Shown: positions 7,299 to 63,051 of the stretch, piece after piece | Position numbering within the stretch: position 1 is the first letter of the stretch | Layout of the letters: every line of letters starts with the position of its first letter | NCBI GenBank assembly: GCA_903843285.1 | Contig: CAIMPC010000039.1 | Span: 44,886 to 108,885 of the forward strand | Source: Candidatus Omnitrophota bacterium | GTDB lineage: Bacteria > Omnitrophota > Gorgyraeia > 2-01-FULL-45-10 | Reading direction: 5' to 3' | DNA: 64,000 bases | Made by a program: the position numbers and the translations under genes | The notes under the pieces: generated by a model | The model's input: only the letters and a program-made list of their open reading frames with translations | Database searches by the model: none | Told to the model about the DNA's origin: nothing

Positions 7299-7471
7299 GG
7301 GGCTGTTGCGAAATACAACTTCTGTCATTCTGAGGAAGGCCATCGGCCGACCGAAGCCTGCCTACCTGCAGGTGTTCGACAGTAGGTAGGCAGGCTTCCT
7401 CGCTTCGCTCGTCAGGATGACAGACGCCCTTCGGCTTCTCTCAGAATTATAAAATTTGAATTTCCTGCCCC
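7299..7471 (+). mobile_element. MITE-like repeat family A, copy 2 (intergenic, metG-tatD)
   Basis: GGGGCTGTTGCGAAATACAACTTCTGTCATTCTGAGGAAGGCCATCGGCCGACCGAAG...CTCGTCAGGATGACAGACG...TCTCAGAATTATAAAATTTGAATTTCCTGCCCC. It carries an extra internal palindrome GCCTGCCTACCTGC/GCAGGTAGGCAGGC. Confidence 0.75.
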
Positions 7472-7539
7472 AGTCACATTTACCGACGCATTACTTCATT
7501 ATTGCAATCTGTGTCGTATTATCATATAATCATGATATT

Positions 7540-8904
7540 ATGTTAATAGATACGCACTGTCATCTTGATTTTAAGGACTTTGACCACGACCGCGATGAGG
7601 TAATAAGCAGAGCATCAAATGCCGGAGTTGGGCGAATAATAAACGTAGCCAGCTCTGTGGAGGGATCCCGCCGGTCTGTAGAGCTTGCGGGTAAGTATGA
7701 GCACATATATTCTACCATAGGAATCCATCCTCATGATGCGGCGTCCGTAAATGATGGTGTTATGTCTGAGCTTAAAGCGCTTGCTACAGGAAAGAAGGTT
7801 GTCGCGATAGGCGAAGTAGGACTCGATTATTACCGCAATCTCTCTTCCAGGGAGGATCAGATATCTGCCTTTAATAAATTCATCGATCTTGCGCTGGAGC
7901 TCGACCTGCCGATGATATTACATGTCAGGGAAGCTGATCGCGATGCATTAGATATACTTAAGGCCCGAAACAGATCCCTTCGCGGTGTAATACACTGTTT
8001 TTCAGGAAGCTCTGATTTTATGAAGGAATGCCTCGATTTTGGATTATTCGTATCATTTACCGCAAACATTACTTTTAAAAAAGCAGATCCGCTCAGAATG
8101 GTAGCGCGCGACGTTTGTACGGAAAGATTACTGCTGGAGACGGATGCGCCGTTCCTGGCTCCTCAGGCCTTGCGAGGCCAACGCAATGAACCGGCATACC
8201 TCACCCACCTGGCGGGAGAATGGTCGCGCCTCCTGGACCTGTCAAAAGACGATATCGCCAGAATCACGACTCATAACGCCAATACCCTTTTTAGATTAGA
8301 TGTAGAAGAGTCATCCAGGATTGCATACGAGATAAGGGATTCCCTCTATCTGAATATAACCAATAGATGCACCAACTCATGCTATTTCTGCATAAGGAAC
8401 CAGACTTCCTTCGTAAAAGGGCATAACCTTAAGATCGATAAAGAGCCGTCGGTAGATGAAATAATGGATGCAGTGAAGGGTTCGAAAAAATATAATGAGA
8501 TAGTATTTTGTGGTTATGGTGAACCTACGCTTAGGCTGGATGTGATTAAAGATGTGGCCGCCAGGGTGAAGGATTCCGGGGTTAAAGTTAGAGTGGTTAC
8601 CAATGGTCATGGCGACCTGATAAATTCCAGAAAAATAGCCAAAGAGCTGTCCGGGATAGTCGATAAAGTATCCGTAAGCCTTAATACGAATACCAAAGAA
8701 TTGTACAATAAATACTGTAAGCCTCAGTTCGGCCCGGATACTTATGGCGACGTGATAAGCTTTATTAAGGATTGCGTTGCAAATAAAATAGAAGTGGAAG
8801 TGACGTGCCTTGATCTTCCCGACGTGGATCTTAAAGAGTGCGAAGCTATCATTAAAGAGCTTGGGGGTATATTCAGGCCTCGATCTCTCGGAGTGGTCGG
8901 ATGA
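7540..8904 (+). CDS. fusion protein: TatD-family metal-dependent hydrolase (N-terminal) + radical SAM domain (C-terminal, TatD-associated radical SAM type)
   Basis: N-terminal MLIDTHCHLDFKDFDHDRDEV, GIHPHDA and EVGLDYY are TatD motifs. The C-terminal part has the CTNSCYFC CxxxCxxC radical-SAM cluster motif plus the GYGEPTL glycine-rich SAM motif. Start chosen at the ATG just before the TatD HxH motif. Confidence 0.75.
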   Translation: MLIDTHCHLDFKDFDHDRDEVISRASNAGVGRIINVASSVEGSRRSVELAGKYEHIYSTIGIHPHDAASVNDGVMSELKALATGKKVVAIGEVGLDYYRNLSSREDQISAFNKFIDLALELDLPMILHVREADRDALDILKARNRSLRGVIHCFSGSSDFMKECLDFGLFVSFTANITFKKADPLRMVARDVCTERLLLETDAPFLAPQALRGQRNEPAYLTHLAGEWSRLLDLSKDDIARITTHNANTLFRLDVEESSRIAYEIRDSLYLNITNRCTNSCYFCIRNQTSFVKGHNLKIDKEPSVDEIMDAVKGSKKYNEIVFCGYGEPTLRLDVIKDVAARVKDSGVKVRVVTNGHGDLINSRKIAKELSGIVDKVSVSLNTNTKELYNKYCKPQFGPDTYGDVISFIKDCVANKIEVEVTCLDLPDVDLKECEAIIKELGGIFRPRSLGVVG

Positions 8905-9959
8905 GAGGATTCGCCGGGTTTTTAAAAAGAGAACGCCTATACATACTTATCCTTATACTTGTAACGATAGTAAGTATATTAGTAGTATTAGGACCCCCCG
9001 ATAGAACGAAACATGAAGGTCATAGCGCAGTAAAAGACGCGTCGGCTTCATTAGAAGAAAGATCTTTGAATGATCGTCCGGCAGTAGAGAAGGCTTTGGC
9101 AGGGAATAAGTATCTTGCATTAATGTTCATGATAGTGTCACTACTTACCGCCGTCATATTTATTCTGGGCATTGTTATCGATCTGTCTATTCTATGGTTG
9201 AGGCGTGCAGGTAAGCCTCTGGAGATGGCCACCCGCACTCATGACAAGATAAGCTGGACATTATGGGACGTGACAAAGGTTGTAGCTCTGTATCTATTCT
9301 TCGCATATATTATACTTATCGCAGAGGCCTCCCTTGGCAATATATTTCCCGCGATAAAGGGTAATAATTTCAGGATGATATTCAACTCGTCGATAATGGA
9401 TATATTGGTCGTTGTATTTATATTATATTTTACCGTTTCACAGTACAAAGTAAGTTTTGAGTCGCTGGGCTTGACGACGAAGAATTTTTTTAGGAATATA
9501 TATTATGGTATAGTAGCTTACATAGCTTTTATGCCTTTAATGGTAGCCATAGTGGCCGTGACTGCCATTATAATAAATTTGACCAAATTTGTACCGCATG
9601 TGCAACCCGTGGTCGGGCTCTTTCTCGAAGAAAAGAATATGCAGCTTCTGATGTATACGAGCATATTTGCGGCGATAGCCGGACCCGTAATCGAGGAATT
9701 ATTCTTCAGAGGGTTTATGTACAATGCTATGAAGAAGTATGCAGGGGTATTCTGGGCCATGACTATTACGGCTTCTCTATTTGCCGGGCTTCATGCGCAT
9801 ATGGTCGGGTTCATGCCGATATTGGCCCTCGGAATATTATTGGCGTATTTATACGAGAAGACCGGCAGTCTCGTCTCTTCCGTTACAGTCCATGTGATAC
9901 ATAACGTAAGTATGGTCACGCTGGTATTCCTTGTAAAGCAATTGGGAGTATATAAATAA
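8901..9959 (+). CDS. CPBP-family (CAAX/Abi) intramembrane metalloprotease
   Basis: Multi-pass membrane protein with the three CPBP motifs: EELFFRGF, LFAGLHAH and HVIHN. Overlaps the upstream stop by 4 nt, so likely an operon. Confidence 0.75.
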   Translation: MRGFAGFLKRERLYILILILVTIVSILVVLGPPDRTKHEGHSAVKDASASLEERSLNDRPAVEKALAGNKYLALMFMIVSLLTAVIFILGIVIDLSILWLRRAGKPLEMATRTHDKISWTLWDVTKVVALYLFFAYIILIAEASLGNIFPAIKGNNFRMIFNSSIMDILVVVFILYFTVSQYKVSFESLGLTTKNFFRNIYYGIVAYIAFMPLMVAIVAVTAIIINLTKFVPHVQPVVGLFLEEKNMQLLMYTSIFAAIAGPVIEELFFRGFMYNAMKKYAGVFWAMTITASLFAGLHAHMVGFMPILALGILLAYLYEKTGSLVSSVTVHVIHNVSMVTLVFLVKQLGVYK

Positions 9960-11063
9960 ATGTCAAAGGTTGCGCTTAGGCGTTGCGAGGATTATGATTT
10001 TGATAAGGTGTATAAAGCAGTAAAGAGTTCAGTAGATCTCCTGGGCGGCATGGAGAGATTTGTCAAGCCCGGCATGAAGGTACTGCTGAAGCCTAATTTA
10101 TTGACTGCGGCTTTGCCTGATGAGGCAGTTACTACTCACCCTGAAGTGGTAAGGGCGGTAGGACGCCTGGTGCGCGAGGCCGGCGGAACCGTCAGGATAG
10201 GGGATGCACCGGGTGGATACGGTAAAAATATAGACGAGATATTGGATAAGTCCGGATTACGGCGTATTGCGGAGGAGGAATGGTTCGAGTTGGTCAAATT
10301 CAACACCGCGAGCTTTAAAGACGGAATCCCGATAGCCAAACATGTCCTTGAGGCGGATCTGATGATCTCGATACCAAAGATTAAGACGCATTGCATTACC
10401 GTTATGACCGGAGCGATAAAAAATATGTTTGGTACGGTTACCGGATTGCATAAGGCCGAATGCCATTCTAAGGCGCCCAGAGAAGGAGATCTGGCCAGGA
10501 TACTGGTGAAAGTATATTCTATGACTAAGCCGGGGCTTACCGTAGTAGATGGTATAGTCGGGATGGAAGGCGATGGGCCCTCGGCCGGTAAGCCTAGAGC
10601 CTTAAATGTAGTGATGGCGGGCATCGATGCAGTGGCGATAGATGCCTGCATGGCTAAGATCATAGGACTCAATCCTCTCGACGTGGTGGTGACGAATATG
10701 GCGTGTGAAGCCGGTCTTGGTGTAGCCGATATGTCCAAAATAGAGGTGCTCGGCGATAGGCTTGACAGCTTCATCGTAAAAGATTTTAAGCTTCCCCGGA
10801 CGATGCCCTTAAGGATTTTACCCCGACCGATATTGAAGTGGTTCCTGGGATTAATGAGCTTTAAGCCGGATATCGATTATGATATTTGCGTGAAGTGCGG
10901 GCTTTGCAAGGCGGCATGTCCGGTAAATTGCATATCCATCCGAGAGACGTTCTGTAGTATCGATTATTCGGCCTGCGTTAGATGCCTTTGTTGTCACGAG
11001 GTCTGCCCGCATAAGGCGATCTCGATCAAACGTAATCTGTTGACGAAGATGATATGGGGGTGA
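9960..11063 (+). CDS. DUF362 domain protein with C-terminal 2x[4Fe-4S] ferredoxin domain
   Basis: N-terminus MSKVALRRCEDYDFDKVYKAV...VKPGMKVLLKPNLL is typical DUF362. C-terminus has CVKCGLCKAACPVNC and CVRCLCCHEVCPHKA 4Fe-4S motifs. Starts 1 nt after the CPBP stop. Confidence 0.7.
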   Translation: MSKVALRRCEDYDFDKVYKAVKSSVDLLGGMERFVKPGMKVLLKPNLLTAALPDEAVTTHPEVVRAVGRLVREAGGTVRIGDAPGGYGKNIDEILDKSGLRRIAEEEWFELVKFNTASFKDGIPIAKHVLEADLMISIPKIKTHCITVMTGAIKNMFGTVTGLHKAECHSKAPREGDLARILVKVYSMTKPGLTVVDGIVGMEGDGPSAGKPRALNVVMAGIDAVAIDACMAKIIGLNPLDVVVTNMACEAGLGVADMSKIEVLGDRLDSFIVKDFKLPRTMPLRILPRPILKWFLGLMSFKPDIDYDICVKCGLCKAACPVNCISIRETFCSIDYSACVRCLCCHEVCPHKAISIKRNLLTKMIWG

Positions 11064-11157
11064 GGATTTTTTCGCACGCACCATAGTTAGGCATTTACTT
11101 TTGGGTGGTGCCTTCGCTTATCGCAAATTTGATTAGTCATACAAATTTGCCGTTGTG
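11064..11157 (+). repeat. repeat family B, copy 1 (short; immediately after stop codon)
   Basis: GATTTTTTCGCACGC...TTTACTTTTGGGTGGTGCCTTCGCTTATCGCAAATTTG...CAAATTTGCCGTTGT. Shares 30-40 nt blocks with the copies at 22741 and 28278. Confidence 0.65.
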
Positions 11158-11178
11158 ATCTACGAGAGGAGAGTCGAG

Positions 11179-11595
11179 ATGAAAAAGGTTGTCGCAATGT
11201 TTGCGTTATGTCTGGTGATGAGTGGCTGTGCGACGTCGGGAAATATATGGAAGGAGATCGCGGGCACTTCTACGCAAGAGATCGAAGAGACCAGGGTGGA
11301 TGCGGTCTCTAAGGTATTCGAATACGATTATAAGACCTGTTATTTTAATGTGGAGAAACTCTTAAATAAGATGCCAAAGATCTCCATCTATTCTAAAGAC
11401 AATAGCACGATAGCCGTCTATTTTATAAATCCGGACACCACGCCTGTGGGGCTTTTTTTTAAGGAGATAGATTCGACTCATACGCAAGTGGAGATATCAT
11501 CACCGAGTACCCCCGCAAAGGAATGGGTTGCTAAGAACATATTCACTGAGACGGTTCAGGAACCCCAGAAACTTATAACAAAGGGCGGTATTTAA
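11179..11595 (+). CDS. hypothetical lipoprotein
   Basis: MKKVVAMFALCLVMSGCATSG lipobox (LVMSGC). RBS GAGAGGAGAG upstream of the ATG at 11179. No recognisable domain. Confidence 0.6.
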   Translation: MKKVVAMFALCLVMSGCATSGNIWKEIAGTSTQEIEETRVDAVSKVFEYDYKTCYFNVEKLLNKMPKISIYSKDNSTIAVYFINPDTTPVGLFFKEIDSTHTQVEISSPSTPAKEWVAKNIFTETVQEPQKLITKGGI

Positions 11596-11599
11596 ATCT

Positions 11600-12637
11600 A
11601 TGCCGGTGGATACGATAAATTGGAAGAGCGGTAAGGTAAGATTCATAGACCAGACGCTGTTGCCCGGCCGCGTGAAGTTCGTTAGCTGTGATAACGTTCC
11701 GCGTTTGTGGAGGGCAATAAAGAGGCTTGAGATAAGAGGCGCCCCCGCCATAGGCATTGCAGGGGCTTTTGGGGTGGTGCTTAGCGCCAATAACTCAAGG
11801 GCAAAAAGTGCCGAGAGATTTCTGAGGGACCTCCGCAAGGATATTAAATATCTCGCTTCATCGAGGCCTACGGCCGTAAATCTATTCTGGGCGCTGGAGA
11901 GGATGGAAAAGATAGCTAATACCAATTTGCATAATGGCATAGGTAAGACAAAGAATCTTCTTCTTAAAGAGGCGTTGGCAGTATTAAGAGATGACAGAAA
12001 ACACTGCAGGGCGATGGCGCGTTACGGTGCAAGGCTGGTGCGTCACGGAGATACGATTTTGACTCACTGTAACGCCGGAGGCCTTGCTACCGCTGACTAC
12101 GGCACGGCCCTCGGAGTCTTATTTGAGTCTAATAGGCTTAACAAACATATAAAAGTCTACGTGGATGAGACCAGGCCTCTCCTTCAGGGTTCGCGCTTGA
12201 CAGCGTGGGAACTGCTCCACGAAGGTATGGATGCCACTCTTATATGCGATAATATGGCCGCGAGCCTCATGGCGAAGGGTAAGATAGATAAGATCTTCGT
12301 CGGAGCTGACCGTATAGCTTCTAATGGTGATACGGCAAATAAGATCGGCACGTATTCCCTGGCGGTTCTGGCAAAATATCATAAGGTGCCATTCTATGTA
12401 GTGGCGCCGGCCTCAACATTTGATCTTAATATAAAAACAGGCAGGGATATACCGATAGAAGAACGTGATGCAAGCGAAGTGCGTACCGTTATGGGTAGAG
12501 AGATCGCGCCAAGAAATATTAAGGTATATAATCCGGCGTTCGATGTAACCCCTGAAAAGCTCATAACCGCTATAATTACGGAACGAGGAATATTTAAAAG
12601 GCCTTACAGGAAGGCCTTAGAAATATTAAGAGGATAA
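11600..12637 (+). CDS. mtnA: S-methyl-5-thioribose-1-phosphate isomerase
   Basis: 345 aa in the eIF-2B alpha/beta/delta-like family: RGAPAIGIAGA and GADRIASNGDTANKIGTY. Confidence 0.8.
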   Translation: MPVDTINWKSGKVRFIDQTLLPGRVKFVSCDNVPRLWRAIKRLEIRGAPAIGIAGAFGVVLSANNSRAKSAERFLRDLRKDIKYLASSRPTAVNLFWALERMEKIANTNLHNGIGKTKNLLLKEALAVLRDDRKHCRAMARYGARLVRHGDTILTHCNAGGLATADYGTALGVLFESNRLNKHIKVYVDETRPLLQGSRLTAWELLHEGMDATLICDNMAASLMAKGKIDKIFVGADRIASNGDTANKIGTYSLAVLAKYHKVPFYVVAPASTFDLNIKTGRDIPIEERDASEVRTVMGREIAPRNIKVYNPAFDVTPEKLITAIITERGIFKRPYRKALEILRG

Positions 12638-12655
12638 GGCGCGGGAAGAAGCGGT

Positions 12656-13567
12656 ATGAAGATAAAAGATATCGGTGAGATAGGATTAATCGAGCGTATT
12701 TCCAGAGGAATTAAGCTCGATAAGTCCGTCATAAAAGGCATAGGCGACGACACGGCGGTTATCGCTTGGACGCCCGGGAAATATTTGTTATACACATGCG
12801 ATATGCTCGTCGAGGATGTTCATTTCAGGGCTGGGCCGGCTGTGCCGTTTCAGATCGGATGGAAGGCTATGGCACGGAACCTGAGCGATATAGCGGCGAT
12901 GGGAGGTATAGGCCGATATGCGGTAGTCTCGATCGCCTTAGACCCGGAAAAAAGCATATCATTTATCGATGAGATATACAGAGGGCTGAGGGCCGCCTGT
13001 AAACAATTTAAGGTAAATCTCGTAGGCGGAGATATATCGAAATCGAAGAAGACGGTTATCGACGTCTCCCTCATAGGCGAAGTGGAGAAGCGGAATCTCG
13101 TTACGCGCGCCGGGGCTAAAACAGGCGATGTCGTTCTTACGACAGGGTCATTTGGCGGATCTATAAAAAAGAAGCACTTGAATTTTACTCCGAGAGTTAA
13201 TGAAGCGCGGTTTCTCGTAAATGGTTATAAGATAAACTCGATGATAGATGTGACGGATGGCCTAATCATAGACCTAAATAGAATACTCAAATCAAGCAAT
13301 GTCGGAGCCAGGATATATAAAGGCTCTATCCCTGTTTCTGCCGACGCCGTTTCATTTAAACGGGCCGTTACCGACGGAGAGGACTTCGAACTCTTATTTA
13401 CAATGAGTCCGGACGAAGCCCGGCGGTTAATGAATTCTCGATCGACAAAGATGAAGGTTCCAATATCTGTAATAGGTGAGATTGCAGACAGAAGAGAAGG
13501 ATTTAAACTGATAACGAATAAGCTCGAGCACAGGATCTTAAATCCGAAAGGGTATTTACATTTTTAG
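12656..13567 (+). CDS. thiL: thiamine-monophosphate kinase
   Basis: AIR synthase-related fold: IGEIGLIERI, GIGDDTAV, DMLVEDVHF. Confidence 0.85.
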   Translation: MKIKDIGEIGLIERISRGIKLDKSVIKGIGDDTAVIAWTPGKYLLYTCDMLVEDVHFRAGPAVPFQIGWKAMARNLSDIAAMGGIGRYAVVSIALDPEKSISFIDEIYRGLRAACKQFKVNLVGGDISKSKKTVIDVSLIGEVEKRNLVTRAGAKTGDVVLTTGSFGGSIKKKHLNFTPRVNEARFLVNGYKINSMIDVTDGLIIDLNRILKSSNVGARIYKGSIPVSADAVSFKRAVTDGEDFELLFTMSPDEARRLMNSRSTKMKVPISVIGEIADRREGFKLITNKLEHRILNPKGYLHF

Positions 13568-13990
13568 ATGGTCAGGATATCGAGAAGCATAGAAGATACT
13601 ATCGGCATTGGAGAAGGGATTGCGAAGGCCCTGAAAGCCGGTGATGTAGTCGCGCTTATCGGCAATCTCGGATCCGGTAAAACTGTGCTTACGAAAGGAA
13701 TCGCTAAGGGGCTCGGTGTAAAGAATATCAACTATGTAAATAGCCCGACGTTCGTCATAATAAAAGAGTATATTGCCAGAGTGCCGCTTTATCACCTTGA
13801 TGTATACAGATTAAATGAACTCGCGACCCTTGATGCCGAGACTTATGAGGAATATTTTTATGGCGATGGAGTTACCGTTATAGAATGGGCCGATAAAATT
13901 CGTAAGATATTACCGAAGAAATATATTGAAATCAGATTGTCCGTGATCGGTGAGTGCGAAAGAAAAATAGAAATAAAAAAGAATAAATGA
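13568..13990 (+). CDS. tsaE: tRNA threonylcarbamoyladenosine biosynthesis protein TsaE
   Basis: P-loop LIGNLGSGKTVLTKGIAKGLG, SPTF and LYHLDVYRL motifs. Confidence 0.9.
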   Translation: MVRISRSIEDTIGIGEGIAKALKAGDVVALIGNLGSGKTVLTKGIAKGLGVKNINYVNSPTFVIIKEYIARVPLYHLDVYRLNELATLDAETYEEYFYGDGVTVIEWADKIRKILPKKYIEIRLSVIGECERKIEIKKNK

Positions 13991-14655
13991 AATTATTAGC
14001 GATAGATACATCGACCGACTTTTTAAGCCTCGCCGTTATGGATGGCAATGATGTGCTCGCACGAATACATAGAAGCGAGCCGAGAAGCCATTCCAGCCTT
14101 CTCGTTCCGATGATAGATGAAGTCCTGAAGATGTCAGGGGTAGAGCTTAAGGCCCTCGATGGATTCTGTCTCAGCATAGGACCGGGATCATTTACGGGAC
14201 TGCGTATCGGCGTGACGACTATAAAAGGCCTTGGGGTTATTACAAAAAAGCCAATCGTTGTCGTGCCCACGTTAGATGTGATCGCCCAGAACGCAAAACG
14301 ATTTCATGGTATAATATGTACGGTTCTGGATGCCAGGAAGGCCAAGGCGTACGCTTGCATTTATAGGTCCGATGGTAAGGGCTTGAAAAAATTGTCCAAG
14401 GTTCTGCTGGCTCCTGTGGCCGGCATAGTTAAGATATTAAGTTGTTATGATGAAGTGCTGTTTCTGGGAGATTTTGCCGATAAGATTGCGCCACAGCTGT
14501 CCGGCGCCAGGGTCATGGAGGGCGCGTGGCAGCCGAGGCCCGAAGTTGTGGGAATCCTCGGTCTCGAGTATTTTAAAAAGAAGAGATTTGTTAAGGCCGA
14601 AGATCTGGAGCCTTCATACATTTATTCAAAAGAATGTGACGTTACGGGAAGATGA
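13987..14655 (+). CDS. tsaB: tRNA threonylcarbamoyladenosine biosynthesis protein TsaB
   Basis: MKLLAIDTSTDFLSLAV...GPGSFTGLRIG, inactive Kae1/YeaZ homolog. Sits in a tsaE-tsaB pair. Confidence 0.9.
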   Translation: MKLLAIDTSTDFLSLAVMDGNDVLARIHRSEPRSHSSLLVPMIDEVLKMSGVELKALDGFCLSIGPGSFTGLRIGVTTIKGLGVITKKPIVVVPTLDVIAQNAKRFHGIICTVLDARKAKAYACIYRSDGKGLKKLSKVLLAPVAGIVKILSCYDEVLFLGDFADKIAPQLSGARVMEGAWQPRPEVVGILGLEYFKKKRFVKAEDLEPSYIYSKECDVTGR

Positions 14656-28278: not shown

Positions 28279-28450
28279 TTTTTCGGCAACAACGGACAGG
28301 CGTTTACTTTTGGGTGGTACCTTCGCTTGTCGTTCGCTCGGATTAGCCATCCTCGCTCACTGTTGATAAAATTTCGATGGTGAAGCCTGTATCGGCATAA
28401 GGTATCGAAATTTTATAAAGTCGCTACGGCACGCACCCAAAAGTTCCGCC
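28278..28450 (+). repeat. repeat family B, copy 3 (immediately after stop); inner element bounded by 11-bp terminal inverted repeat ACTTTTGGGTG/CACCCAAAAGT (28305-28444)
   Basis: ATTTTTCGGCAAC...GTTTACTTTTGGGTGGTACCTTCGCTTGTCGTTCGCTCGG...TGTTGATAAAATTTCGAT[25-nt loop]ATCGAAATTTTATAAAGTCGCTACGGCACGCACCCAAAAGTTCCGCC. Confidence 0.7.
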
Positions 28451-32493: not shown

Positions 32494-32578
32494 GTCATTC
32501 TGAGGAGGGCTTTAGCCCGACGAAGAATCTAAAAGCAAGATCCTTCGCTTCGCCCTATCGGGCTTCGCTCAGGATGAC
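32494..32578 (+). repeat. repeat family A, 85-bp core-only copy (GTCATTCTGAGG...CTCAGGATGAC)
   Basis: GTCATTCTGAGGAGGGCTTTAGCCCGACGAAGAATCTAAAAGCAAGATCCTTCGCTTCGCCCTATCGGGCTTCGCTCAGGATGAC. Same length and terminal inverted repeats as the divergent copy at 45398-45482. Confidence 0.7.
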
Positions 32579-45397: not shown

Positions 45398-45482
45398 GTC
45401 ATGCTGAGCGAAGCGAAGCATCTGCTTTTATTTATTGCCGTCGTAACCAGATCCTTCGGCCATTTCATGGTCTCAGGATGAC
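45398..45482 (+). repeat. repeat family A, divergent 85-bp core copy (GTCATGCTGAG...CTCAGGATGAC)
   Basis: GTCATGCTGAGCGAAGCGAAGCATCTGC...CATGGTCTCAGGATGAC. Terminal inverted repeats match family A core ends. Confidence 0.55.
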
Positions 45483-51305: not shown

Positions 51306-51420
51306 GGGACTGTTGCGAAATGCAACTTCCGTCATTCTGAGGGAGGCCATCGGCCGACCGAAGAATCTATTTACCGTCGAGATTCTTCACTGCGCCCTTC
51401 GGGCTTCGTTCAGAATGACG
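51306..51420 (+). repeat. repeat family A, copy lacking right outer terminal inverted repeat
   Basis: GGGACTGTTGCGAAATGCAACTTCCGTCATTCTGAGGGAGGCCATCGGCCGACCGAAGAATCTATTTACCGTCGAGATTCTTCACTGCGCCCTTCGGGCTTCGTTCAGAATGAC. Confidence 0.75.
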
Positions 51421-51510
51421 CATGCCATTATATGACTGAGCTGTTACACGGTTTCCTCGCAATGGCAAAGGTTGTTATATTACTGAGCTGTTACAAATAA
51501 AGGCGGATGC

Positions 51511-51840
51511 ATGAAGACTATTACGAAACTTTGGATTGGGCTTGCTATATTGATCGTGGTCTCACCGATTGGCTTGATACTTCCGGAACATTTTAAAGCA
51601 GGTTCTGCATGGGGCGAGTGGGGAGCTGAAGAAATACACAAACTGGTCGGCTACATACCTAAGGGCTTTGAAAAGATAGGAAGTCTATGGAATGCGCCCA
51701 TACAGGACTATGCGTTTAAGCTCTGGGGCGGTAAAGGGCCTTTTCATATCGGCGCTACATACATCTTATCCGCTACGCTTGGCATAGCAATAACAGTCTC
51801 TATAGTACTATTTCTCGGCCGATTCCTTTCGAAGAAGTAA
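51511..51840 (+). CDS. small membrane protein adjacent to cbiM (possible CbiN/PDGLE-like partner)
   Basis: TM helix at each end. It sits next to cbiM but is separated from it by a family A repeat. Confidence 0.35.
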   Translation: MKTITKLWIGLAILIVVSPIGLILPEHFKAGSAWGEWGAEEIHKLVGYIPKGFEKIGSLWNAPIQDYAFKLWGGKGPFHIGATYILSATLGIAITVSIVLFLGRFLSKK

Positions 51841-52512: not shown

Positions 52513-52654
52513 GGGACTGTTGTAAAATACAACTTCCGTCATTCTGAGGGAGGCCATCGGCCGACCGAAGAATCTATTTACCGTCGAGATTCTTCACTTC
52601 GCCCTTTGGGCTTCGTTCAGAATGACGGGAAAATTGACATTTCGCAACAGTCCC
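52513..52654 (+). mobile_element. MITE-like repeat family A, full 142-bp copy with ~35-bp terminal inverted repeats
   Basis: Left GGGACTGTTGTAAAATACAACTTCCGTCATTCTGA; right TCAGAATGACGGGAAAATTGACATTTCGCAACAGTCCC, its reverse complement with a few mismatches. Also has an internal palindrome GAAGAATCT..AGATTCTTC. Confidence 0.8.
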
Positions 52655-53651: not shown

Positions 53652-53654
53652 AGA

Positions 53655-54956: not shown

Positions 54957-54971
54957 AGGGTACGGACTAAA

Positions 54972-55664: not shown

Positions 55665-55665
55665 A

Positions 55666-57165
55666 ATGGCTATAATCCAAGAGATAGAGAAAATTTTTTT
55701 TACCGGGGCGGCGGTATATATAAGCACCGATTTTATGGATATCGCTGAGGCACGTATGTCGCCCGGCGGAGTAGTATTAACCTCGCTTCAGCGTTTCCCT
55801 ATCGGATTCGGATCGGAACGCGGCATAAGCGGTATATTGGACAGGATATTCTCATCCGAATATCAAATACCGTATCGCGTCGCCGTTAATGTCAGAAACG
55901 ACCAGCTGATCCTGAGGTGGTTTAAGATGCCCAATGTGCCCCAGAAAGAGCTCGCGCAGGCGGTAGTATTTGCAGCCCAGCAGCATCTGCCGTGCCCTAT
56001 CGAAACCCTCACCTATGCATTCAAATCATACCGGGGCGTATCGAATTTCCGAGAAATAGTCATTGCCGCTACCGAGACAAAAAATATCAACGAGCTGGTA
56101 GCCTATTTCAGGAGAAAGCATATCCTGCCCGCCGTGATCGAGCCGGTGCCTTTTCTGTTATCAAAGCTCATCGCTTTAAATGGTTCGGCGAGCGAAGAGA
56201 CGTGTCTTCTTATGCATTATGAACCTCACAGTAAAATAATTTTGTGCGGAATATCCCGCAAGCATCCTTACTTTTTCAGGGAGATCACTGCGCCCTTCGA
56301 CATCGGGCCGAGATGGAAGGGCGAAGATAATGTCGCCTATCCGACATTAGGAGCTGTATGGCCGCACGTAGAGGCAGACGTTATAAAAAGTATGAGCTAT
56401 ATGCGTAAAGAGGCGGGCCATGATGTGAAGAAGATATACGTTTCCGGTTTTTCGCCCTCTCATGATGAGGAGCGAATATCGAAAGAGCTGAATGTCCCAG
56501 TGGAGAGGCATCGCTTTGCCTTCTTTACAAAAGACGGCCCTGACAAGGATGATAAGTACCTTCCCGTCCTAATGCTCGTTCTTAACTCTTTAAAAAACCC
56601 GTCCCTGAATATCGCTCCTGCGGAAATAGTTCGTAATGATATGCGGGGGATTAAGGTTGTTTTGTTAAAATTTCTAGCCGGGCTTGGCGTGATCGTTGTA
56701 CTGCATATGGCATTCTTAGGTATAAATGCCAAAATCGGCCTTAAGGCAAAACTCGCGAATAACGTAGAAAATTACGGAGTTATAAATCCATCCAGCCCCA
56801 GAGCAGATGTAGAGCTTTACAAAAAATCCGTTATCGAAAGCGCTTTATTCGTCAGCGACTTTTTATCCAAAAAGCGATTTCTCCCGCAAAAATTAGTATG
56901 CCTGAGTCGGTTGATGCCGCAGATTTCGTGGGTCGAAGAGATCTCTTTTACCGGGAGTATAAAAACTGACCGGTTACCTACCTTAACAATAAAGGGGTCG
57001 ATATTTGATGTCGCCTCGGACTCTACCAGCGCGAATAAGATACTGGAGGTCCTTAAAGCCGATAAAGATATGATGGAAGGATTTAAGGGGGCGAACCTTT
57101 CATATGTCGAGAAAAAGATATCGTCAGGGAGAGAGATCACCGATTTTGAGGTTTCATTCAAATAA
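55666..57165 (+). CDS. pilM: PilM-PilN fusion (actin-like ATPase domain + TM + periplasmic PilN-like domain)
   Basis: N-terminal ~330 aa PilM-like (PQKELAQAVVFAAQQHLP resembles the PilM EAxxYIP motif). TM segment IKVVLLKFLAGLGVIVVLHMAFLGI, then ~150 aa periplasmic. Confidence 0.55.
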   Translation: MAIIQEIEKIFFTGAAVYISTDFMDIAEARMSPGGVVLTSLQRFPIGFGSERGISGILDRIFSSEYQIPYRVAVNVRNDQLILRWFKMPNVPQKELAQAVVFAAQQHLPCPIETLTYAFKSYRGVSNFREIVIAATETKNINELVAYFRRKHILPAVIEPVPFLLSKLIALNGSASEETCLLMHYEPHSKIILCGISRKHPYFFREITAPFDIGPRWKGEDNVAYPTLGAVWPHVEADVIKSMSYMRKEAGHDVKKIYVSGFSPSHDEERISKELNVPVERHRFAFFTKDGPDKDDKYLPVLMLVLNSLKNPSLNIAPAEIVRNDMRGIKVVLLKFLAGLGVIVVLHMAFLGINAKIGLKAKLANNVENYGVINPSSPRADVELYKKSVIESALFVSDFLSKKRFLPQKLVCLSRLMPQISWVEEISFTGSIKTDRLPTLTIKGSIFDVASDSTSANKILEVLKADKDMMEGFKGANLSYVEKKISSGREITDFEVSFK

Positions 57166-57176
57166 GGCTTCATAAT

Positions 57177-57746
57177 ATGATAGATATAAAAAACATTCTA
57201 AATGACAGAAAAAAAACGTGGGGTATCTTATTATTCCTGATATTATGCGCGCTCGCATTTGTTTTGCTATTCAAATATGATTTTGGGAGCTTTCGTAAGA
57301 TACAGTTTACAATCGCTGAAAATAAGCATAATAAGGCTACGCTGGATTCTCTCGGTGAGTACAAAAAATATCTGAAGAAATTTAACGCATGTCTGGTGCC
57401 GGATAATGGCATCGATTGGCTCATGGGGACTCTAACGGTGGTGTCAAAAAATAATGGCGTAACTTTAAGCGCCGTAAAGCCGATCAAAACGGAATATTGT
57501 TCTGGGTATGAGGTAGTGAAGGCATCCATAGAGGGAACGTCTTCATATAAAGAGCTCCTCCGTTTCATTAAGGCCATAGAAGACGGTAAGGAATATATGT
57601 TGATCGAAAGCATCTCCATAAGGTCGATTGAAATCGCCCCGGATGAATTCGCGAAAAATTCACCGGCAGTTCTCACGAGAAACGTATCTCGCGGCAGGTT
57701 GGTAGGTTTTAACGCGATCATAGCTTATGTGGCGCTTAAAATATGA
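57177..57746 (+). CDS. pilO: PilO-like pilus assembly protein
   Basis: Short cytoplasmic N-terminus, a single TM, a periplasmic domain. Position between pilM/N and pilP. Confidence 0.5.
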   Translation: MIDIKNILNDRKKTWGILLFLILCALAFVLLFKYDFGSFRKIQFTIAENKHNKATLDSLGEYKKYLKKFNACLVPDNGIDWLMGTLTVVSKNNGVTLSAVKPIKTEYCSGYEVVKASIEGTSSYKELLRFIKAIEDGKEYMLIESISIRSIEIAPDEFAKNSPAVLTRNVSRGRLVGFNAIIAYVALKI

Positions 57747-58219
57747 TAATGCCTGATAAGAAAAAAGTGATTGAAATCCTGATAATCATCATGGGGGGCA
57801 TTTATTTGCTTTATAGGATATTTATGCCGAAACCGGATATGAAACAGGCGCACGACGCGGCGGGTCATATGCCTATAGGCATAGAGATAGCCGGCTTGAA
57901 GGAGACCGTAAAAAACCCTACCGAGGGCGATCGTAAATTAAAGGATGAGGTAGCCGGCGCACGGGATATATTTCAGAAGCCGGACGAATTTTTTGCGTCC
58001 AGCGCAAAAAACGAGGCAGACGCGGCGTCCAAAACAGGAAATAGCGTGCTTTCGCTCGAAGGCACCATATGGGGGCGCGGTAAGAATATCGCGATATTGT
58101 CCGGCGCAGTGGTTAGTGAAGGCGATATTATACAAAAGGGGAAGATCGTCAGGATTGAATCAGACAGAGTGATTATTTTTAAAGATGGTGTGGAGTCAGA
58201 GATAAAGAGAGGTACATAA
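57743..58219 (+). CDS. pilP: PilP-like pilus assembly protein
   Basis: N-terminal anchor, then C-terminal beta-sandwich EGTIWGRGKNIAILSGAVVSEGDIIQKGKIVRIESDRVIIFKDG, typical of PilP. Confidence 0.5.
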   Translation: MIMPDKKKVIEILIIIMGGIYLLYRIFMPKPDMKQAHDAAGHMPIGIEIAGLKETVKNPTEGDRKLKDEVAGARDIFQKPDEFFASSAKNEADAASKTGNSVLSLEGTIWGRGKNIAILSGAVVSEGDIIQKGKIVRIESDRVIIFKDGVESEIKRGT

Positions 58220-58220
58220 A

Positions 58221-59831
58221 ATGAACTTAAAAAAGATTCGGATAGCCATTGTTCTGTCACTTGTGCTTGCCGGGATCGTTTTGTGCAGAGAGTCCGCGGC
58301 TTCGGAAATTGTAAATGGAGTCCTCCCAAAAACCGATGACAAGGTTTCAATGGATTTTGAAAGCGCCGATCTGAAGAGCGTCCTGAAGGCATTTTCCATG
58401 CAGACGGGAATAAACTTTATCGCAAGCGATGTTATCGAGAACAAAAAAGTAACGGTATTTTTAAGCAGAGTTTCTATCAAATTGGCTTTAGCCTCCATAC
58501 TGGAGGCCAACGGCCTTCTCTACGAGATGCAGGGCGATAACGTGTATCTGATAAAACCGAACGGCCAGGCTCTTACGAAGATGGTAACGAAAATATTTAA
58601 GTTAAATTATCTTCAAGTCTCTTCAATGGCATTAGCTAAAGACCCGATGAGCGGATCCAGTAATGTGACGATCATAGGGTCAGCCTCCGCAGTCGCTGCC
58701 CCGCCAGCTTCCAAGGGCCCGGCAGGAGCAACTAATTCCAATATAGTAAATATTATCCAGAGCCTTATGACATCTTCCGGCAAGATCGTGGCCGACATAC
58801 GTAATAACAGCCTTGTCATAACGGACTCACCCAGTATCTTCCCGACGATAGAAGCGACATTAAAGAAGCTCGACGTCGAGCCTGTACAGATAATGATCAC
58901 CGCGGAGATAATCGAGACATCGACCACGGCCCTTAAAAGGATCGGGCTCGAGTACGGCGGAGAAGACAGCATTATTACCGCCACATATACGGCCGCGACT
59001 TTGCCTACTGGAATTCCTTTCACCGAAAGTTTTATAAAAGATACATATGGTCAAAATTTGCTTAACACAGGCAATCCCGCCAGCATTCCGGCTTTCCAAT
59101 ATGGAACTTTATCGCTGGGAAACACTCAGATAGTGCTGAAGCTGTTGGCTACCGATAGCGATACAAAATACCTGTCCCGGCCCAATATAATGACACTGAA
59201 TAATGAGACGGCGATAATAAAAGTATCGGCCAACACCGCCATAGGTATAAACGAAACCATAGCGACAGCGCCGGCCTTAAATACGCAGACTGCCGAGAGG
59301 GCGGAGACGGGAGTGGTATTAAAAGTAACTCCGCAGGTAAATGATAGCGGAGACATATTTATGTATCTCGAGCCGTCTGTTTCGAGGACCGTGCAGTCAC
59401 TGCTATCGGTTAGATTTCTTGACCCGAGTTATAGAAGCTCCTCCTGCACGCTCATGGTGAGGGACTTGGAAACCGTAGTGGTGTCGGGCCTTATACAGAA
59501 AAATATTACAAAATCGGTAAGGAAAGTGCCGATATTGGGTGATATTCCCGGCGTAGGCGAGGCATTTAAATCAAATTATGACAGAGTAGAAGATACAGAG
59601 ATTATCATATTTATAACGCCGCATATCGTGAAGAGGAGAGACTCGGAATATGTCACTCCGGCGCAGATGACCGAGCGTGAACACGTAATGCAAAAAACGC
59701 TCTCAGAGTATATCCCAAAACCGCAGAAAAAAGAGAAGATTGCTCAGGATGAGGAGAGCGTAAGAGCCCTTACCCTGCGTAAGTACAGCACGAACATCCA
59801 GCCGGCCCGAAAGATAGGATCTGGTAAATGA
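58221..59831 (+). CDS. pilQ: type IV pilus secretin
   Basis: Signal peptide, N-domains, secretin core (VLKVTPQVNDSGDIFMYLEPSVS; ETVVVSGLIQKN...VPILGDIPGVGEAF...IIIFITPHIV). Confidence 0.85.
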   Translation: MNLKKIRIAIVLSLVLAGIVLCRESAASEIVNGVLPKTDDKVSMDFESADLKSVLKAFSMQTGINFIASDVIENKKVTVFLSRVSIKLALASILEANGLLYEMQGDNVYLIKPNGQALTKMVTKIFKLNYLQVSSMALAKDPMSGSSNVTIIGSASAVAAPPASKGPAGATNSNIVNIIQSLMTSSGKIVADIRNNSLVITDSPSIFPTIEATLKKLDVEPVQIMITAEIIETSTTALKRIGLEYGGEDSIITATYTAATLPTGIPFTESFIKDTYGQNLLNTGNPASIPAFQYGTLSLGNTQIVLKLLATDSDTKYLSRPNIMTLNNETAIIKVSANTAIGINETIATAPALNTQTAERAETGVVLKVTPQVNDSGDIFMYLEPSVSRTVQSLLSVRFLDPSYRSSSCTLMVRDLETVVVSGLIQKNITKSVRKVPILGDIPGVGEAFKSNYDRVEDTEIIIFITPHIVKRRDSEYVTPAQMTEREHVMQKTLSEYIPKPQKKEKIAQDEESVRALTLRKYSTNIQPARKIGSGK

Positions 59832-61540
59832 GCGATATGGAGAGAAGGAAGCTGGGGGATATGTTGTTGGACGCGAAGCTTATCACTAAAGAACAGCTTG
59901 AGGAGGGGCTCGCTCTGCGCGGAGAGGGCGAAGGCAATGATCCGATCGGGGAGGTATTGGTCAATATGGGGTATCTTTCCGAGGAGGGGCTCGCGCGCAC
60001 ACTTTCAAAGCAATTAAATACCAAGTATCTGTCTTTTGAAGCCGGAACCCTCGTTATTGAGTTTAATCAGAATTTAAGAAAGATTGTAAGTGAAGAATTT
60101 GCCAGAAAAAACAAGGTGCTTCCTTTGTCAAAGACATCGGATACCATATCCGTAGCTATGTGGAATCCGCTGGATTTTACCATTATAGATAACTTAAGGC
60201 GAATGTTGGGAAAAGACGTAGTGGTATATTGCAGTACAAAAAAAGATATTCTGGAAGGAATCAGGAGGCTTTACGTTATTCAGGGGCCGCCAACCGACGC
60301 GAATTCTTACGTCACATCGTTTCAGTCGGATGAAAAGGCTTCCGCGGCAGGTAGGGGTGAAACGGAAAAGCTCAAGCTAAGGGCTTCAGAACCGCCGGTA
60401 ATAAAGTTAGTCAACTCTATCGTGCATGGAGCTATAGAGGAGCTGGCCAGTGATATACATATAGAGCCGTATGAAGAGGGCTTTGATATACGATACAGAG
60501 TGGACGGCCTGCTATATAAGATAGACGCCCCGCCAAAGGATATGTATGCTCCGGTAGTATCAAGGATAAAGATAATGTCGCGGCTTGACATAGCTGAAAA
60601 TCGTCTGCCGCAGGACGGCGGTTTCATGATCAAGCTGGACAATCGAAGCGTCGATTTCCGAGTCTCGACTATCCCGACGATATACGGTGAAAAGATCGTT
60701 ATAAGGGTACTAGACAAAGAGAGCATGAATTTTAGCCTTTCTTCCATAGGAATGAGCGAAGAGAATTATTTAAAGGTCTCCGATGCTATAAGAAAGTCTT
60801 ACGGGCTCATATTTCTGACAGGGCCTACTGGATCGGGAAAGACGACGACTCTTTATTGTATTCTCAATGAGATCAAATCCCCACAAAAAAATGTCATAAC
60901 CATAGAGGACCCGGTCGAATATAGGATCGCAGGGGCAAATCAGGTGCAGGAGCTTCCGGCCATCGGCCTGACTTTCGCTCGCGGACTGCGTGCTTTCCTC
61001 AGGCAGGATCCCGATATAATAATGGTCGGAGAGGTCAGAGACTTTGAAACCGCTGAGATGTGCGTGCGTTCGGCGCTTATCGGCAGACTTGTGCTGAGCA
61101 CGCTCCATACGAACGACTCGGTCGGAGCTATTACAAGATTGGTCGATTTAGGTGTCGAACCATTTCTTGTCAGCTCTTCATTGGTAATGGTTATAGCGCA
61201 GAGGCTCATACGAAGGCTATGTCCAAATTGCAAAGAGCTCATAACAGTCGATAAAACCATAGTCGAAAAGCATTCTCTTGAAGGAGCTAAGATATATGGT
61301 CCGAAGGGATGTGATCTATGCCGCAACAGAGGTTTTGTCGGCAGGCTGGCTATATTTGAGATATTGATAGCGGACAAGGAGATACGGGATCTCATCGAAA
61401 GTAAGCGCGATATGGCTGTTATAAGAGAAGCTCTCGATAAAAAAGGAATGAAATCGTTAAGATATGATGCCATGGACAAGGTCAGGCAAGGACTGACTTC
61501 GATAGACGAGGCCATCCTCGCCACTGCGGAGGATGCATAG
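59828..61540 (+). CDS. pilB: type IV pilus assembly ATPase (GspE family)
   Basis: GSPII_E N-domain, Walker A GPTGSGKTTTLY, Asp box, His box, tetracysteine CPNC...CDLC. Confidence 0.9.
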   Translation: MSDMERRKLGDMLLDAKLITKEQLEEGLALRGEGEGNDPIGEVLVNMGYLSEEGLARTLSKQLNTKYLSFEAGTLVIEFNQNLRKIVSEEFARKNKVLPLSKTSDTISVAMWNPLDFTIIDNLRRMLGKDVVVYCSTKKDILEGIRRLYVIQGPPTDANSYVTSFQSDEKASAAGRGETEKLKLRASEPPVIKLVNSIVHGAIEELASDIHIEPYEEGFDIRYRVDGLLYKIDAPPKDMYAPVVSRIKIMSRLDIAENRLPQDGGFMIKLDNRSVDFRVSTIPTIYGEKIVIRVLDKESMNFSLSSIGMSEENYLKVSDAIRKSYGLIFLTGPTGSGKTTTLYCILNEIKSPQKNVITIEDPVEYRIAGANQVQELPAIGLTFARGLRAFLRQDPDIIMVGEVRDFETAEMCVRSALIGRLVLSTLHTNDSVGAITRLVDLGVEPFLVSSSLVMVIAQRLIRRLCPNCKELITVDKTIVEKHSLEGAKIYGPKGCDLCRNRGFVGRLAIFEILIADKEIRDLIESKRDMAVIREALDKKGMKSLRYDAMDKVRQGLTSIDEAILATAEDA

Positions 61541-62748
61541 TGCCATATTACACGTATGAAGGCCGCGATACCAAAGGCAAACTTGTACGCAATCAGGCCT
61601 TCGCGGTGACGCAGCAAAACTTAATCAGCAATCTTCAGAGCGCCGGAATCACAATCCTGTCTATTAAAAATGCGTCTGCCATTGGCGAGCAAAAGCAGAA
61701 GATGTATAAGAAGATAAGAAATAAGGACCTTGTACTGCTTGCCAAAGAGCTCGCTGTGCTTATGGAAAATGGCATACCCATGATAGAAGCTTTAGAGGTT
61801 ACTCTAAAGCAAATGACCAGCGAAAAGCTTGCAGGCGCTGTCCTGGCCATAAAAAAAGATCTTGAAAGCGGATTATCTATGCATGGTTCGCTGGCCAAGA
61901 TGCCGCATATATTCGGAGATCTATGGACATATCTCGTGGAAGCGGGCGAGGCGTCCGGTCAGATGCCGTTTGTTCTCAGGCATATCCAATTTTTACTCGA
62001 ATCGCGGGAGGATATACATAAAAAAACGATTAATGCCATGATATATCCCGCCTTACTGCTGGGAGCAACCGTGGTTGCGCTCATCATCTTCGCCTTCAAA
62101 ATAATACCTATGTTCAAAGGGATCTATGCATCGCTTGGGGCGGGTAAAGAACTTCCCATGGTGACCCGGGGCGTCCTTTTTTTTAGCGGATTTATAAAAA
62201 ATGAATTTTTGCTTATTACTTTTGGTATCGTGCTTATTGTTTTTTTCGCCAGACAGATCATGACGACAAGCTCGGGGCGGCGGGCATACGAAAAAATTCT
62301 TTTTTCTTCACCCGTTCTCGGTCAGTTGTGCATAGCGATCGTAGTGGAAAAATTCTCCACCGCCATTCAGGTTCTTTTAAAAAGCGGCATACCCATTATA
62401 AGATCGCTTGAAATGGCCGCTAATACTACCGAAAATCACTTATTCGCTGAAAAGATAGAAGAAGCAAAAGCAAAGGTCATTGCCGGACTGCCTCTGGCCG
62501 ACGCTCTGCAGTATACTGGAATCTTTCCACCTATAGCCATATCATTTATTCGGGTAGCTGAAAAGACCGGTAGTTACTCAGAGATGTTTGAGGAGGTTGC
62601 TAAGTACCACAAAGATATAGTGGAGACCTCCATAGTCAGGGTGATGGCGCTTATGGAACCGGTCATGCTTATCACGATGGGTTTAGTTATCGGCGTCATA
62701 GTAATAGCGATGTTCCTGCCGATATTTAGGCTGGCTAATTTAGGATAG
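61540..62748 (+). CDS. pilC: type IV pilus inner-membrane platform protein (GspF family)
   Basis: Two T2SSF repeats and three TM segments; 402 aa. Confidence 0.85.
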   Translation: MPYYTYEGRDTKGKLVRNQAFAVTQQNLISNLQSAGITILSIKNASAIGEQKQKMYKKIRNKDLVLLAKELAVLMENGIPMIEALEVTLKQMTSEKLAGAVLAIKKDLESGLSMHGSLAKMPHIFGDLWTYLVEAGEASGQMPFVLRHIQFLLESREDIHKKTINAMIYPALLLGATVVALIIFAFKIIPMFKGIYASLGAGKELPMVTRGVLFFSGFIKNEFLLITFGIVLIVFFARQIMTTSSGRRAYEKILFSSPVLGQLCIAIVVEKFSTAIQVLLKSGIPIIRSLEMAANTTENHLFAEKIEEAKAKVIAGLPLADALQYTGIFPPIAISFIRVAEKTGSYSEMFEEVAKYHKDIVETSIVRVMALMEPVMLITMGLVIGVIVIAMFLPIFRLANLG

Positions 62749-62916
62749 ACCTTCGAAAGTGGCGCGGAGTGAGTATTCCTCAGCAGTTCCGCCGTGGCGC
62801 GGATTTAGTAGAAAATAATCCCAAATTTTGATATCATAATATACCTTATGGTCTTCTTCGCTGTAATGGTAAGACCGTGATGAAGCTTCGAAGGACCTAT
62901 TCCTACGAAGAGACAG

Positions 62917-63051
62917 CTGAGAAATAAAACTTTCGTCATTCTGAGGGAGGCCATCGGCCGACCGAAGAATCTATTTACAGTTGAGATTCTTCACTTCGCC
63001 CTTCGGGCTTCGTTCAGAATGACGTGGAATTTGATATTTCGCAACAGTTCC
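62917..63051 (+). repeat. repeat family A copy with degenerate left outer terminal inverted repeat
   Basis: ...GAAATAAAACTTTCGTCATTCTGAGGGAGGCCATCGGCCGACCGAAGAATCTATTTACAGTTGAGATTCTTCACTTCGCCCTTCGGGCTTCGTTCAGAATGACGTGGAATTTGATATTTCGCAACAGTTCC. Confidence 0.75.

Follow-up and report, generated by a model that had tools for sequence, protein, structure and literature searches.

Seven copies of a short repeat in a 64-kb window

The window analysed here is a 64,000-nt stretch of contig CAIMPC010000039.1, from an uncultured Candidatus Omnitrophota bacterium. It contains seven loci of a short repeat, hereafter family A, whose core consists of two inverted hairpin units and whose longer forms are bounded by terminal inverted repeats (TIRs). 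A preliminary description, made from the letters of the window alone, had reported seven copies in 64 kb of an element resembling a miniature inverted-repeat transposable element (MITE). On reading the sequence all seven loci were confirmed, with small corrections of the coordinates. The string GTCATTCTGAGG, allowing at most one mismatch, had 7 matches in the window versus 0.25 expected, the outer repeat GGGACTGTTGCGAAAT (at most three mismatches) had 7 versus 0.47, and the generic pattern of the inner repeat, or unit, GTCATNNTGAG..GAAGNATC, had 8 versus 0.00. Every match of the outer repeat lay beside a core. Since the TIRs adjoin cores only, far above chance, the MITE reading is supported. 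Pairwise identity among the copies ranges from 38 to 89% (identical aligned positions, measured against the longer copy), and their flanks are unrelated.

A full element is organised as a 16-bp TIR, a variable linker of 9–12 nt, a unit, a spacer of about 11 nt, an inverted unit, a second linker and the second TIR. The outer repeats were first thought to be about 35 bp long; the conserved TIR is only 16 bp, and what follows it is the linker. The 16-bp TIR GGGACTGTTGCGAAAT is present at both ends of three window copies, and at one end of two others. The elements, 115–232 bp long, lack a transposase gene; stop codons are missing from one frame, which encodes no recognisable protein. Five of the seven loci are true MITEs, whereas those at 32494 and 45398 are TIR-less cores, and are not MITEs if TIRs and target duplications are taken as the criterion.

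All copies are described on the + strand. The first (3754–3928) belongs to a 175-bp subtype with an extra CC-type unit and lies in frame within holB. Its TIRs are at 3754–3769 and 3913–3928, and the duplication that flanks it is imperfect, CATGG/CATAG in one register (4 positions out of 5). The second (7299 to about 7476), of the same subtype, is intergenic between metG and tatD; its left TIR is GGGGCTGTTGCGAAAT, its right TIR is degenerate, and its central hairpin has been swapped for another palindrome, GAAGCCTGCCTACCT..AGGTAGGCAGGCTTC. Two MITEs have the full length of 142 bp. The one at 52513–52654 reads TIR, linker, unit (with a GGCC-ATC-GGCC tip), spacer, inverted unit, linker and TIR; its target duplication is not preserved, and near-identical copies occur in loci L150, L260 and L263. 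The other, at 62910–63051, has a degenerate left TIR (GAGACAGCTGAGAAAT) and is flanked by the 5-mers ACGAA and GCGAA, alike at 4 of 5 positions. The fifth MITE (51306–51420) begins 2 nt past the stop codon of a cbiM-like gene and is made of the left TIR, the linker and the core, the right linker and TIR being absent.

The two remaining loci are pairs of inverted units reduced to the core. The pair at 32494–32578, a TC-type unit followed by a CC-type one, is intergenic between xerC-like and waaA-like genes. The divergent pair at 45398–45482 (GTCATGCTGAGCGAAGCGAAGCATC .. GATCCTTCGGCCATTTCATGGTCTCAGGATGAC) is also intergenic. The spacer AAAAGCAAG is common to the 32494 pair and to the 175-bp MITE subtype, which implies that cores and MITE interiors exchange, or share a recent ancestry. 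An 11-mer (CTGGTTAGATA) and an 8-mer (CTATGCGA) common to the surroundings of both TIR-less cores were discarded, as they occur at chance level only.

Six of the elements are intergenic; the 3754–3928 copy, which lies inside holB, is the only one within a gene. All seven share one orientation (two-sided p of about 0.016 under random orientation). This uniformity may follow the direction of replication or that of transcription, which are inseparable here. Across the window (1–64000) the convincing genes are all on the + strand, and the GC skew is positive in every 4-kb bin (0.09–0.21).

Target duplications and occurrence in other genomes

A scan of 185,579 species genomes for the TIR plus the unit head gave 13 loci, in about eight metagenome-assembled genomes (MAGs) of Omnitrophota, one of Planctomycetia and one of Elusimicrobia. 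In these loci direct 5-bp repeats flank the TIRs immediately outside. In a metagenome scan the composite element was found in at least 116 stretches, and the TIR was paired in 84 elements. Many metagenome contigs terminate within a copy.

Target duplication was measured on pooled unique elements with flanks (n = 85) from other genomes and metagenomes, with a control shifted by 5 bp. A perfect 5-bp duplication was present in 50 of the 85 elements and a duplication with one mismatch in 11 more, versus 0 of 85 in the shifted control. The consensus of the duplicated sequence, A-T-N-A-T, is AT-rich. With its TIRs, these duplications and the IS5-family partners described below, the view of family A as a mobile, MITE-like family with nested inverted repeats was borne out.

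A blastn search of PLSDB plasmids and INPHARED phages with the 144-nt element gave no match, and the 16-mer TIR had 6 matches only in IMG/VR, which is chance level. Independent assemblies, made from different samples and sources, have the holB and 32494 loci in identical form. Assembly duplication, which had been named as a possible refutation, does not account for the copies, because they differ, their flanks are unique and the loci recur in independent assemblies.

Within the MITEs the hairpin region is highly plastic, with extra helical layers, extra units and nested units. In a 232-bp MITE (L125:3905-4136), a TG-type unit pair (GTGTTATTGCGAGCCCGCCGAAGGCGGGC..CCGCAATGACAC) is nested in a degraded outer unit pair.

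IS5-family elements with the same ends

The autonomous partner envisaged by the preliminary description exists elsewhere: insertion sequences (ISs) with identical TIRs, encoding IS5-family transposases, were found in other sequences. Loci L188, L265, L266, L271 and L272 combine the TIRs of the MITE with a transposase gene. L188 and L170 were matches of the metagenome scan that proved not to be MITEs. The 1151-bp element of L188 is bounded by two perfect TIRs, and its transposase, of 317 aa, reaches 280.8 bits with NCBIfam NF033581 'IS5 family transposase' (cutoff 140), contains the Pfam domains DDE_Tnp_1 and DUF772, and is 31% identical to InsH of E. coli IS5. L265 is a complete IS of 1297 bp; it lies between two copies of ATTAT, and each of its ends has a hairpin unit on the inner side. 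L271 and L272 have this layout too. Since an IS of the L265 type has units inside both ends, the MITE is most simply two ends of such an IS joined.

In L170, the order is TIR, linker, full hairpin unit, promoter-like region, gene for a 328-aa transposase, inverted unit and contig end. More than 1,100 proteins are related to the one of L170 (E up to 1e-20), and among the 120 listed nearly all are on contigs of 1–2.5 kb, as is usual for repeats; L265 was obtained from these relatives. The 18 nt that precede the left TIR (L170:1-18) are the same as L170:704-721 in its own transposase gene, which reflects either an insertion of one copy into another or an assembly artefact. At L264:1270-1300 and L266:1-30, the IS has its right end at ATTTT, and a left TIR follows without a gap (ATTTT/GGGACTGTTGCAAAAT). 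This junction could be that of a tandem dimer or of a circle, or an assembly wrap-around.

IS5A of E. coli K-12 (L276, NC_000913.3 273955-275149) has GTCATCTGGAG at positions 39–49 of one end and GTCATTTC at positions 43–50 of the other. These boxes, which contain GTCAT and lie about 40 nt inside both ends, resemble the unit head GTCATTCTGAG. Judging from these sequences, the GTCAT head may be an old feature of IS5 ends.

Hairpin units and TIR-less pairs

The unit reads 5'-GTC, a 5-bp stem strand AT[N]CT, GA, a short helix with a GNA-type tip, GA, the complementary strand AG[N']AT and C, with the GTC head pointing outward. In units from 120 IMG/VR stretches, the N:N' pair was T:A in 172 cases, C:G in 43, A:T in 4 and G:C in 1, and this covariation supports the hairpins. 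Of 147 distinct units, 122 fold symmetrically, the hairpin (stem plus loop) being 20–54 nt long. Mismatches in the stems show no wobble excess (G.T 13 versus A.C 11). Extra tandem G.A and A.G mismatches number 33 each, versus 2 each for C.T and T.C, and the loops are mostly GNA triloops of the d(GCGNAGC) mini-hairpin type. The lack of G.T excess, the G.A surplus and the GNA loops point indirectly to the folding of one DNA strand, rather than of an RNA or a plain duplex palindrome.

The preliminary description had suggested a composite or nested element, and rightly so: the inner core is separable, and is widespread without the outer TIRs. The unit pattern alone was found in at least 120 IMG/VR stretches, where units are single, stand in arrays between genes for phage structural proteins or form inverted pairs, mostly of a TC-type with a CC-type unit (29 of 35). 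Among 31 distinct TIR-less pairs, none had a direct duplication of 2–9 bp. The pairs are sharply bounded: GTCAT is preceded by T in 25 of the 31, and ATGAC is followed by A in 30. Hairpins with a GTCAT head form a much larger class that spans phyla; the units belong to it, as do hairpins found alone or in TIR-less pairs, such as the 32494 and 45398 loci. A partner gene was looked for near the IMG/VR units by clustering the open reading frames (ORFs) that lie within 600 nt of a unit or are bracketed by two units; this gave phage structural genes only.

Similarity of the units to NTS and SRM hairpins

Literature searches by unit sequences or by unit-encoded peptides returned nothing relevant; the NTS-type string alone led to papers on Neisseria and Ssn. 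Chenal et al. (2025, PMC11893778) define the Neisseria NTS, CGTCATTCCCGCGMAVGCGGGAATCYRG, within which dRS3 lies. For the 'Ssn-related motif' (SRM), which is degenerate, the published pattern is HGTCWYN(0-2)YYVSBRHN(0-5)WNVSBRGN(0-2)RNCYNB (PMC11893778). Small GIY-YIG nucleases (Ssn, cd10448) bind NTS and SRM hairpins as single-stranded DNA only and cut just upstream; the GTC upstream of the palindrome matters for cleavage, and the C directly after the palindrome is crucial for binding (PMC11893778). Both the GTC head and this C are present in every unit of the window.

Of the 78 unique MITEs with the family A TIR, 19 carry units that match the published SRM pattern (30 matches, versus 0.1 in shuffles), and some of these units are identical to the Neisseria NTS consensus. 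GA-type units like those of the window are found in 55 of the 78, and both types together in none. Therefore, the two hairpin types occupy the same slot. The units resemble NTS and SRM in their layout and in this interchangeability within the MITE skeleton and, by analogy, a nuclease of the Ssn kind might act on them.

Regular-expression and phmmer searches over all loci returned a single GIY-YIG, in L175, a homing-like duplicate gene without units. No relatives of it were found in IMG/VR, and a relative in Omnitrophota lies tightly within a pst operon, also without units. Two identical genes for an 86-aa GIY-YIG protein lie in L175 itself (2098-2367 and 2690-2959, stop-free frames of 90 codons), within a segment that is duplicated inside a repeat-rich gene. 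A long palindrome (GGTCCCGCACCTTTCTGCA..TGCAGAAAGGTGCGGGAGGAC) comes after each of them, an arrangement like that of homing endonucleases, and GTCAT units are absent.

Insertion into holB and other genes

The holB gene (3580–4746, + strand) encodes a DNA polymerase III delta' subunit of 388 aa, while most of the HolB orthologues listed have 316–322 aa. The names given to homologues of this HolB point to an uncultured Candidatus Omnitrophota bacterium as its source. The 3754–3928 copy is inserted between 'AKAINC' and 'CGSCSSC' of the zinc module and lengthens the protein in frame by about 59 residues, a segment absent from P0002, its closest homologue (69% identity). In comparison with solved clamp-loader structures, residues 55–128 of HolB fall between residues 72 and 76 of E. 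coli gamma; in the zinc module this lies after the first cysteine and before the CxxCxxC. In the AlphaFold model, residues 58–128 have a pLDDT below 50 and no secondary structure, versus 80–95 for the remaining fold. On the basis of this model, we propose that the copy is read through as a disordered addition of about 59 residues within a longer disordered loop. The protein with the insert is recorded on 13 contigs.

The frame that begins at the GGG of the TIR is free of stops in four of the five MITE copies. In-frame copies were also found in ORFs of 2666 codons (L128) and 1090 codons (L130), and both orientations occur. The former, from an Omnitrophota MAG, has its MITE at L128:7039-7159, in an open frame of at least 2666 codons, with a second, TG-type unit ('LLRRCAPRNDK') upstream in the same ORF.

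Several other HolB orthologues of Omnitrophota (P0091, P0095, P0061, P0097, P0040, P0098 and L275:301-1413) have inserts encoded by other palindromic repeats in the same zinc-module loop, for example 'LRQAQGRPE..SHPEPVEG'. P0095 has another insert besides, 'VLRQNAQDDPGQSREAED', at a later position. In-frame repeats seem to have landed, or to have been tolerated, in this loop again and again.

Other repeats and genes of the window

Downstream of the cbiM-like gene, between the truncated MITE and a small ORF at 51511, lie two direct copies of TTATAT(G/T)ACTGAGCTGTTACA (51428–51448 and 51475–51495), 47 nt apart. They might serve as an operator, or be a regulatory repeat of another kind. A repeat family unrelated to family A, AGGC(A/G)TTTACTTTTGGGTGGT(G/A)CCTTCGCTT(A/G)TCG, is present at 11089–11123 and 28298–28332, the two copies being 91% identical. 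About 100 nt downstream of the latter (near 28420–28440) is an inverted arm, GCACGCACCCAAAAGT. This repeat is probably another small palindromic element. At about 7537–8904 (L121:16049-17413), one gene joins a TatD DNase domain to a radical-SAM domain, an unusual fusion.

Discussion

Taken as a whole, family A is very probably a MITE of the uncultured Candidatus Omnitrophota bacterium, an IS5-family derivative that carries hairpin units, and it was most likely derived by internal deletion from an IS of that family. Each end consists of the 16-bp TIR GGGACTGTTGCGAAAT, the linker of 9–12 nt and a unit with its GTC head outward. A DDE transposase acting in trans would recognise these ends and insert the element at AT-rich, ATNAT-like sites, duplicating 5 bp. 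The central core would be the two subterminal hairpin units brought together, and the one stop-free frame would let insertions in surface loops of proteins survive.

Several observations weigh against this interpretation. Around the copies in the window, the target duplication is either imperfect or no longer present. Other organisms, and not the source genome fragment, provided the autonomous copies: a tblastn search for a transposase with these TIRs found none in the 64-kb window or in the extra 8.5 kb of L121, so that mobility in this genome today is no more than possible. Nor was presence/absence polymorphism seen at the 32494 locus, since five of the five assemblies with the sequence share the same intergenic spacing of 173 nt. 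The duplication of 5 bp is not the one of the IS5 group, where it is usually 4 bp (YTAR for IS5). The transposases of L170 and L265 score just below the NF033581 cutoff (133.5 and 129.2 bits, versus 140). More distant ISs with the same TIR, L267 and L268 (the latter from Ignavibacteria), have no units; the hairpins are therefore not required by the transposase family, and are an accessory feature of one lineage. The published SRM pattern has 0 matches in the window, because the G.A loops of its units do not fit it, and in the loci searched no Ssn-type GIY-YIG gene was flanked by units.

Some of these points would fit another view, namely that the core units are the real functional or mobile entity, similar to REP/REPIN (REP, repetitive extragenic palindrome) or to NTS/SRM and served by a RAYT-type HUH transposase or a GIY-YIG Ssn, the IS5-type TIRs being one vehicle only. 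Units and TIR-less pairs are indeed much more widespread than the TIR (at least 120 IMG/VR stretches versus the six chance matches), the pairs have sharp ends and no target duplication, and units are nested in units, or vary in number and structure among otherwise similar MITEs. IS relatives with the same TIR exist without units, the G.A surplus and GNA triloops suggest one strand folding as DNA, and the GTC head, the palindrome and the C that follows it are the NTS positions that matter for Ssn cleavage and binding. However, in loci that total about 1.7 Mb neither a RAYT nor an Ssn gene was seen beside units (no search was aimed at RAYT), and the GIY-YIG clade that was followed up behaves as a free-standing homing gene, without units. 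Moreover, REP has the head GTAG and not GTCAT, the window units fall outside the published SRM pattern, and the GTCAT boxes of E. coli IS5, some 40 nt inside both ends, leave room for the head being an old IS5 end feature. We consider this view possible but rather unlikely. Less likely still is a more specific proposal, according to which the units would be a GA-mismatch branch of the Ssn-recognised NTS/SRM class, with ISs and MITEs of the IS5 family as their cross-phylum vehicle, and TIR-less pairs, whose sharp ends lie at the GTCAT heads, would result from nuclease cuts in the linkers, on opposite strands. If it were true, it would provide the missing dispersal route for repeats of the NTS/dRS3 type and link a DDE transposon to a GIY-YIG system acting on single-stranded DNA; the GTCAT boxes of E. 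coli IS5 would then hint at a motif class descending from IS5-type ends.

A structured regulatory RNA, whether a messenger stabiliser like REP or ERIC (enterobacterial repetitive intergenic consensus) elements, a terminator or a small RNA, would be in line with copies that lie between co-directional genes and share one orientation in the window. The strong fold anticipated for the RNA was obtained, the 144-nt element forming a long rod with z-scores of −8 to −10. However, both strands fold equally well (−72.6 and −71.9 kcal/mol). Rfam has 0 matches in the window (the best sub-threshold one, ilvH, reaches 23.6 bits for a gathering score of 55.1), which also removes the other refutation that had been foreseen, a known structured RNA family. 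The stems lack the surplus of wobble pairs that an RNA would be expected to show, the copies of other genomes lie in either orientation with respect to adjacent genes, neither a terminator nor a promoter pattern was detected in the two copies scanned, and an efficient terminator inside holB would be lethal. The post-transcriptional role suggested in the preliminary description was not supported by these results, and such an RNA is a very improbable explanation. A hammerhead-like reading of CTGA..GAA was also dropped, as the core has no CUGAUGA, by eye, and there is no Rfam match. The 5-bp AT-rich duplications and the GGG start of the ends are typical of the Tn3 family, and could evoke a Tn3-family derived miniature element (TIME). 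This origin is highly improbable, and we rejected it in view of the IS5-type partners: the autonomous elements found with these TIRs are all 1.15–1.3 kb long, with IS5-type DDE_Tnp_1 transposases of about 320 aa and not the roughly 1000 aa of Tn3, and the TIR resembles that of IS5, GGAAGGTGCGAA. Finally, many metagenome contigs end inside the element, a sign that assemblers struggle with it. An assembly or chimera artefact has nevertheless a negligible probability, given copies that differ, flanks that are unique, holB and 32494 loci that are identical in independent assemblies, and the 13 contigs with the holB insert.

A MITE family alone would be ordinary. With family A, a system of TIRs, 5-bp duplications and IS5-type partners is documented for Omnitrophota and neighbouring uncultured phyla, whose mobile elements are poorly described, and these repeats break assemblies. 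That one skeleton can carry either GA-type hairpins or hairpins of the NTS consensus suggests a concrete route for the spread of Ssn recognition sites. The holB copy extends to a phylum other than that of Rickettsia the in-frame colonisation of essential genes, and the zinc loop of HolB has been struck independently by different palindromic repeats in several Omnitrophota lineages.

Comparison with known systems

Family A has the properties of prokaryotic MITEs derived from ISs, for which IS5 of E. coli was taken as the reference: it is short (121–232 bp) and non-coding, has TIRs and target duplications, and shares its TIRs with autonomous ISs. The TIR has the GG...GCGAA pattern in common with IS5. 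In contrast with IS5, 5 bp are duplicated, at sites similar to ATNAT, elaborate hairpin units are present in the ends, and the hosts are Omnitrophota and neighbouring uncultured phyla.

Rickettsia palindromic elements (RPEs) are known to insert in frame into protein genes (PMC10969869, review). Like the holB copy, they are palindromic, about 150 bp long and open in one frame, and they lie in frame within unrelated and even essential genes (PMC10969869). They differ from family A by their host phylum and by their sequence, compared by eye only, with no similarity search made; family A moreover has an IS5-type partner and clear TIRs and target duplications, and most of its window copies are intergenic.

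The units recall REP, BIME (bacterial interspersed mosaic element) and REPIN sequences, as these are imperfect palindromes of 20–40 nt with a conserved 5' head, single or in inverted pairs and arrays, and without target duplication; the tips of enterobacterial REPs also have GCGAAGC. Membership of the REP/RAYT system was rejected because the head is GTCAT and not GTAG or GTGG. The composite form, unlike REP and REPIN, has TIRs and duplications typical of DDE transposition. No RAYT/Y1 transposase was found among the recurrent neighbours of units, where no search aimed at RAYT was made.

In NTS, dRS3 and SRM, as in the units, directional hairpins have a (C/T)GTCAT head and a palindrome beginning with AT that is followed at once by C, and they occur as single copies, inverted pairs or clusters in many phyla. 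The units of the window differ from SRM by their tandem G.A internal loops, their GNA tips and their position inside the skeleton of a DDE transposon. What is new in family A is the combination of an IS5-type skeleton, present in Omnitrophota and neighbouring phyla and repeatedly inserted in frame into protein genes, with 5-bp duplications and with directional DNA hairpins of NTS/SRM type, whose GA mismatches the published pattern does not cover.

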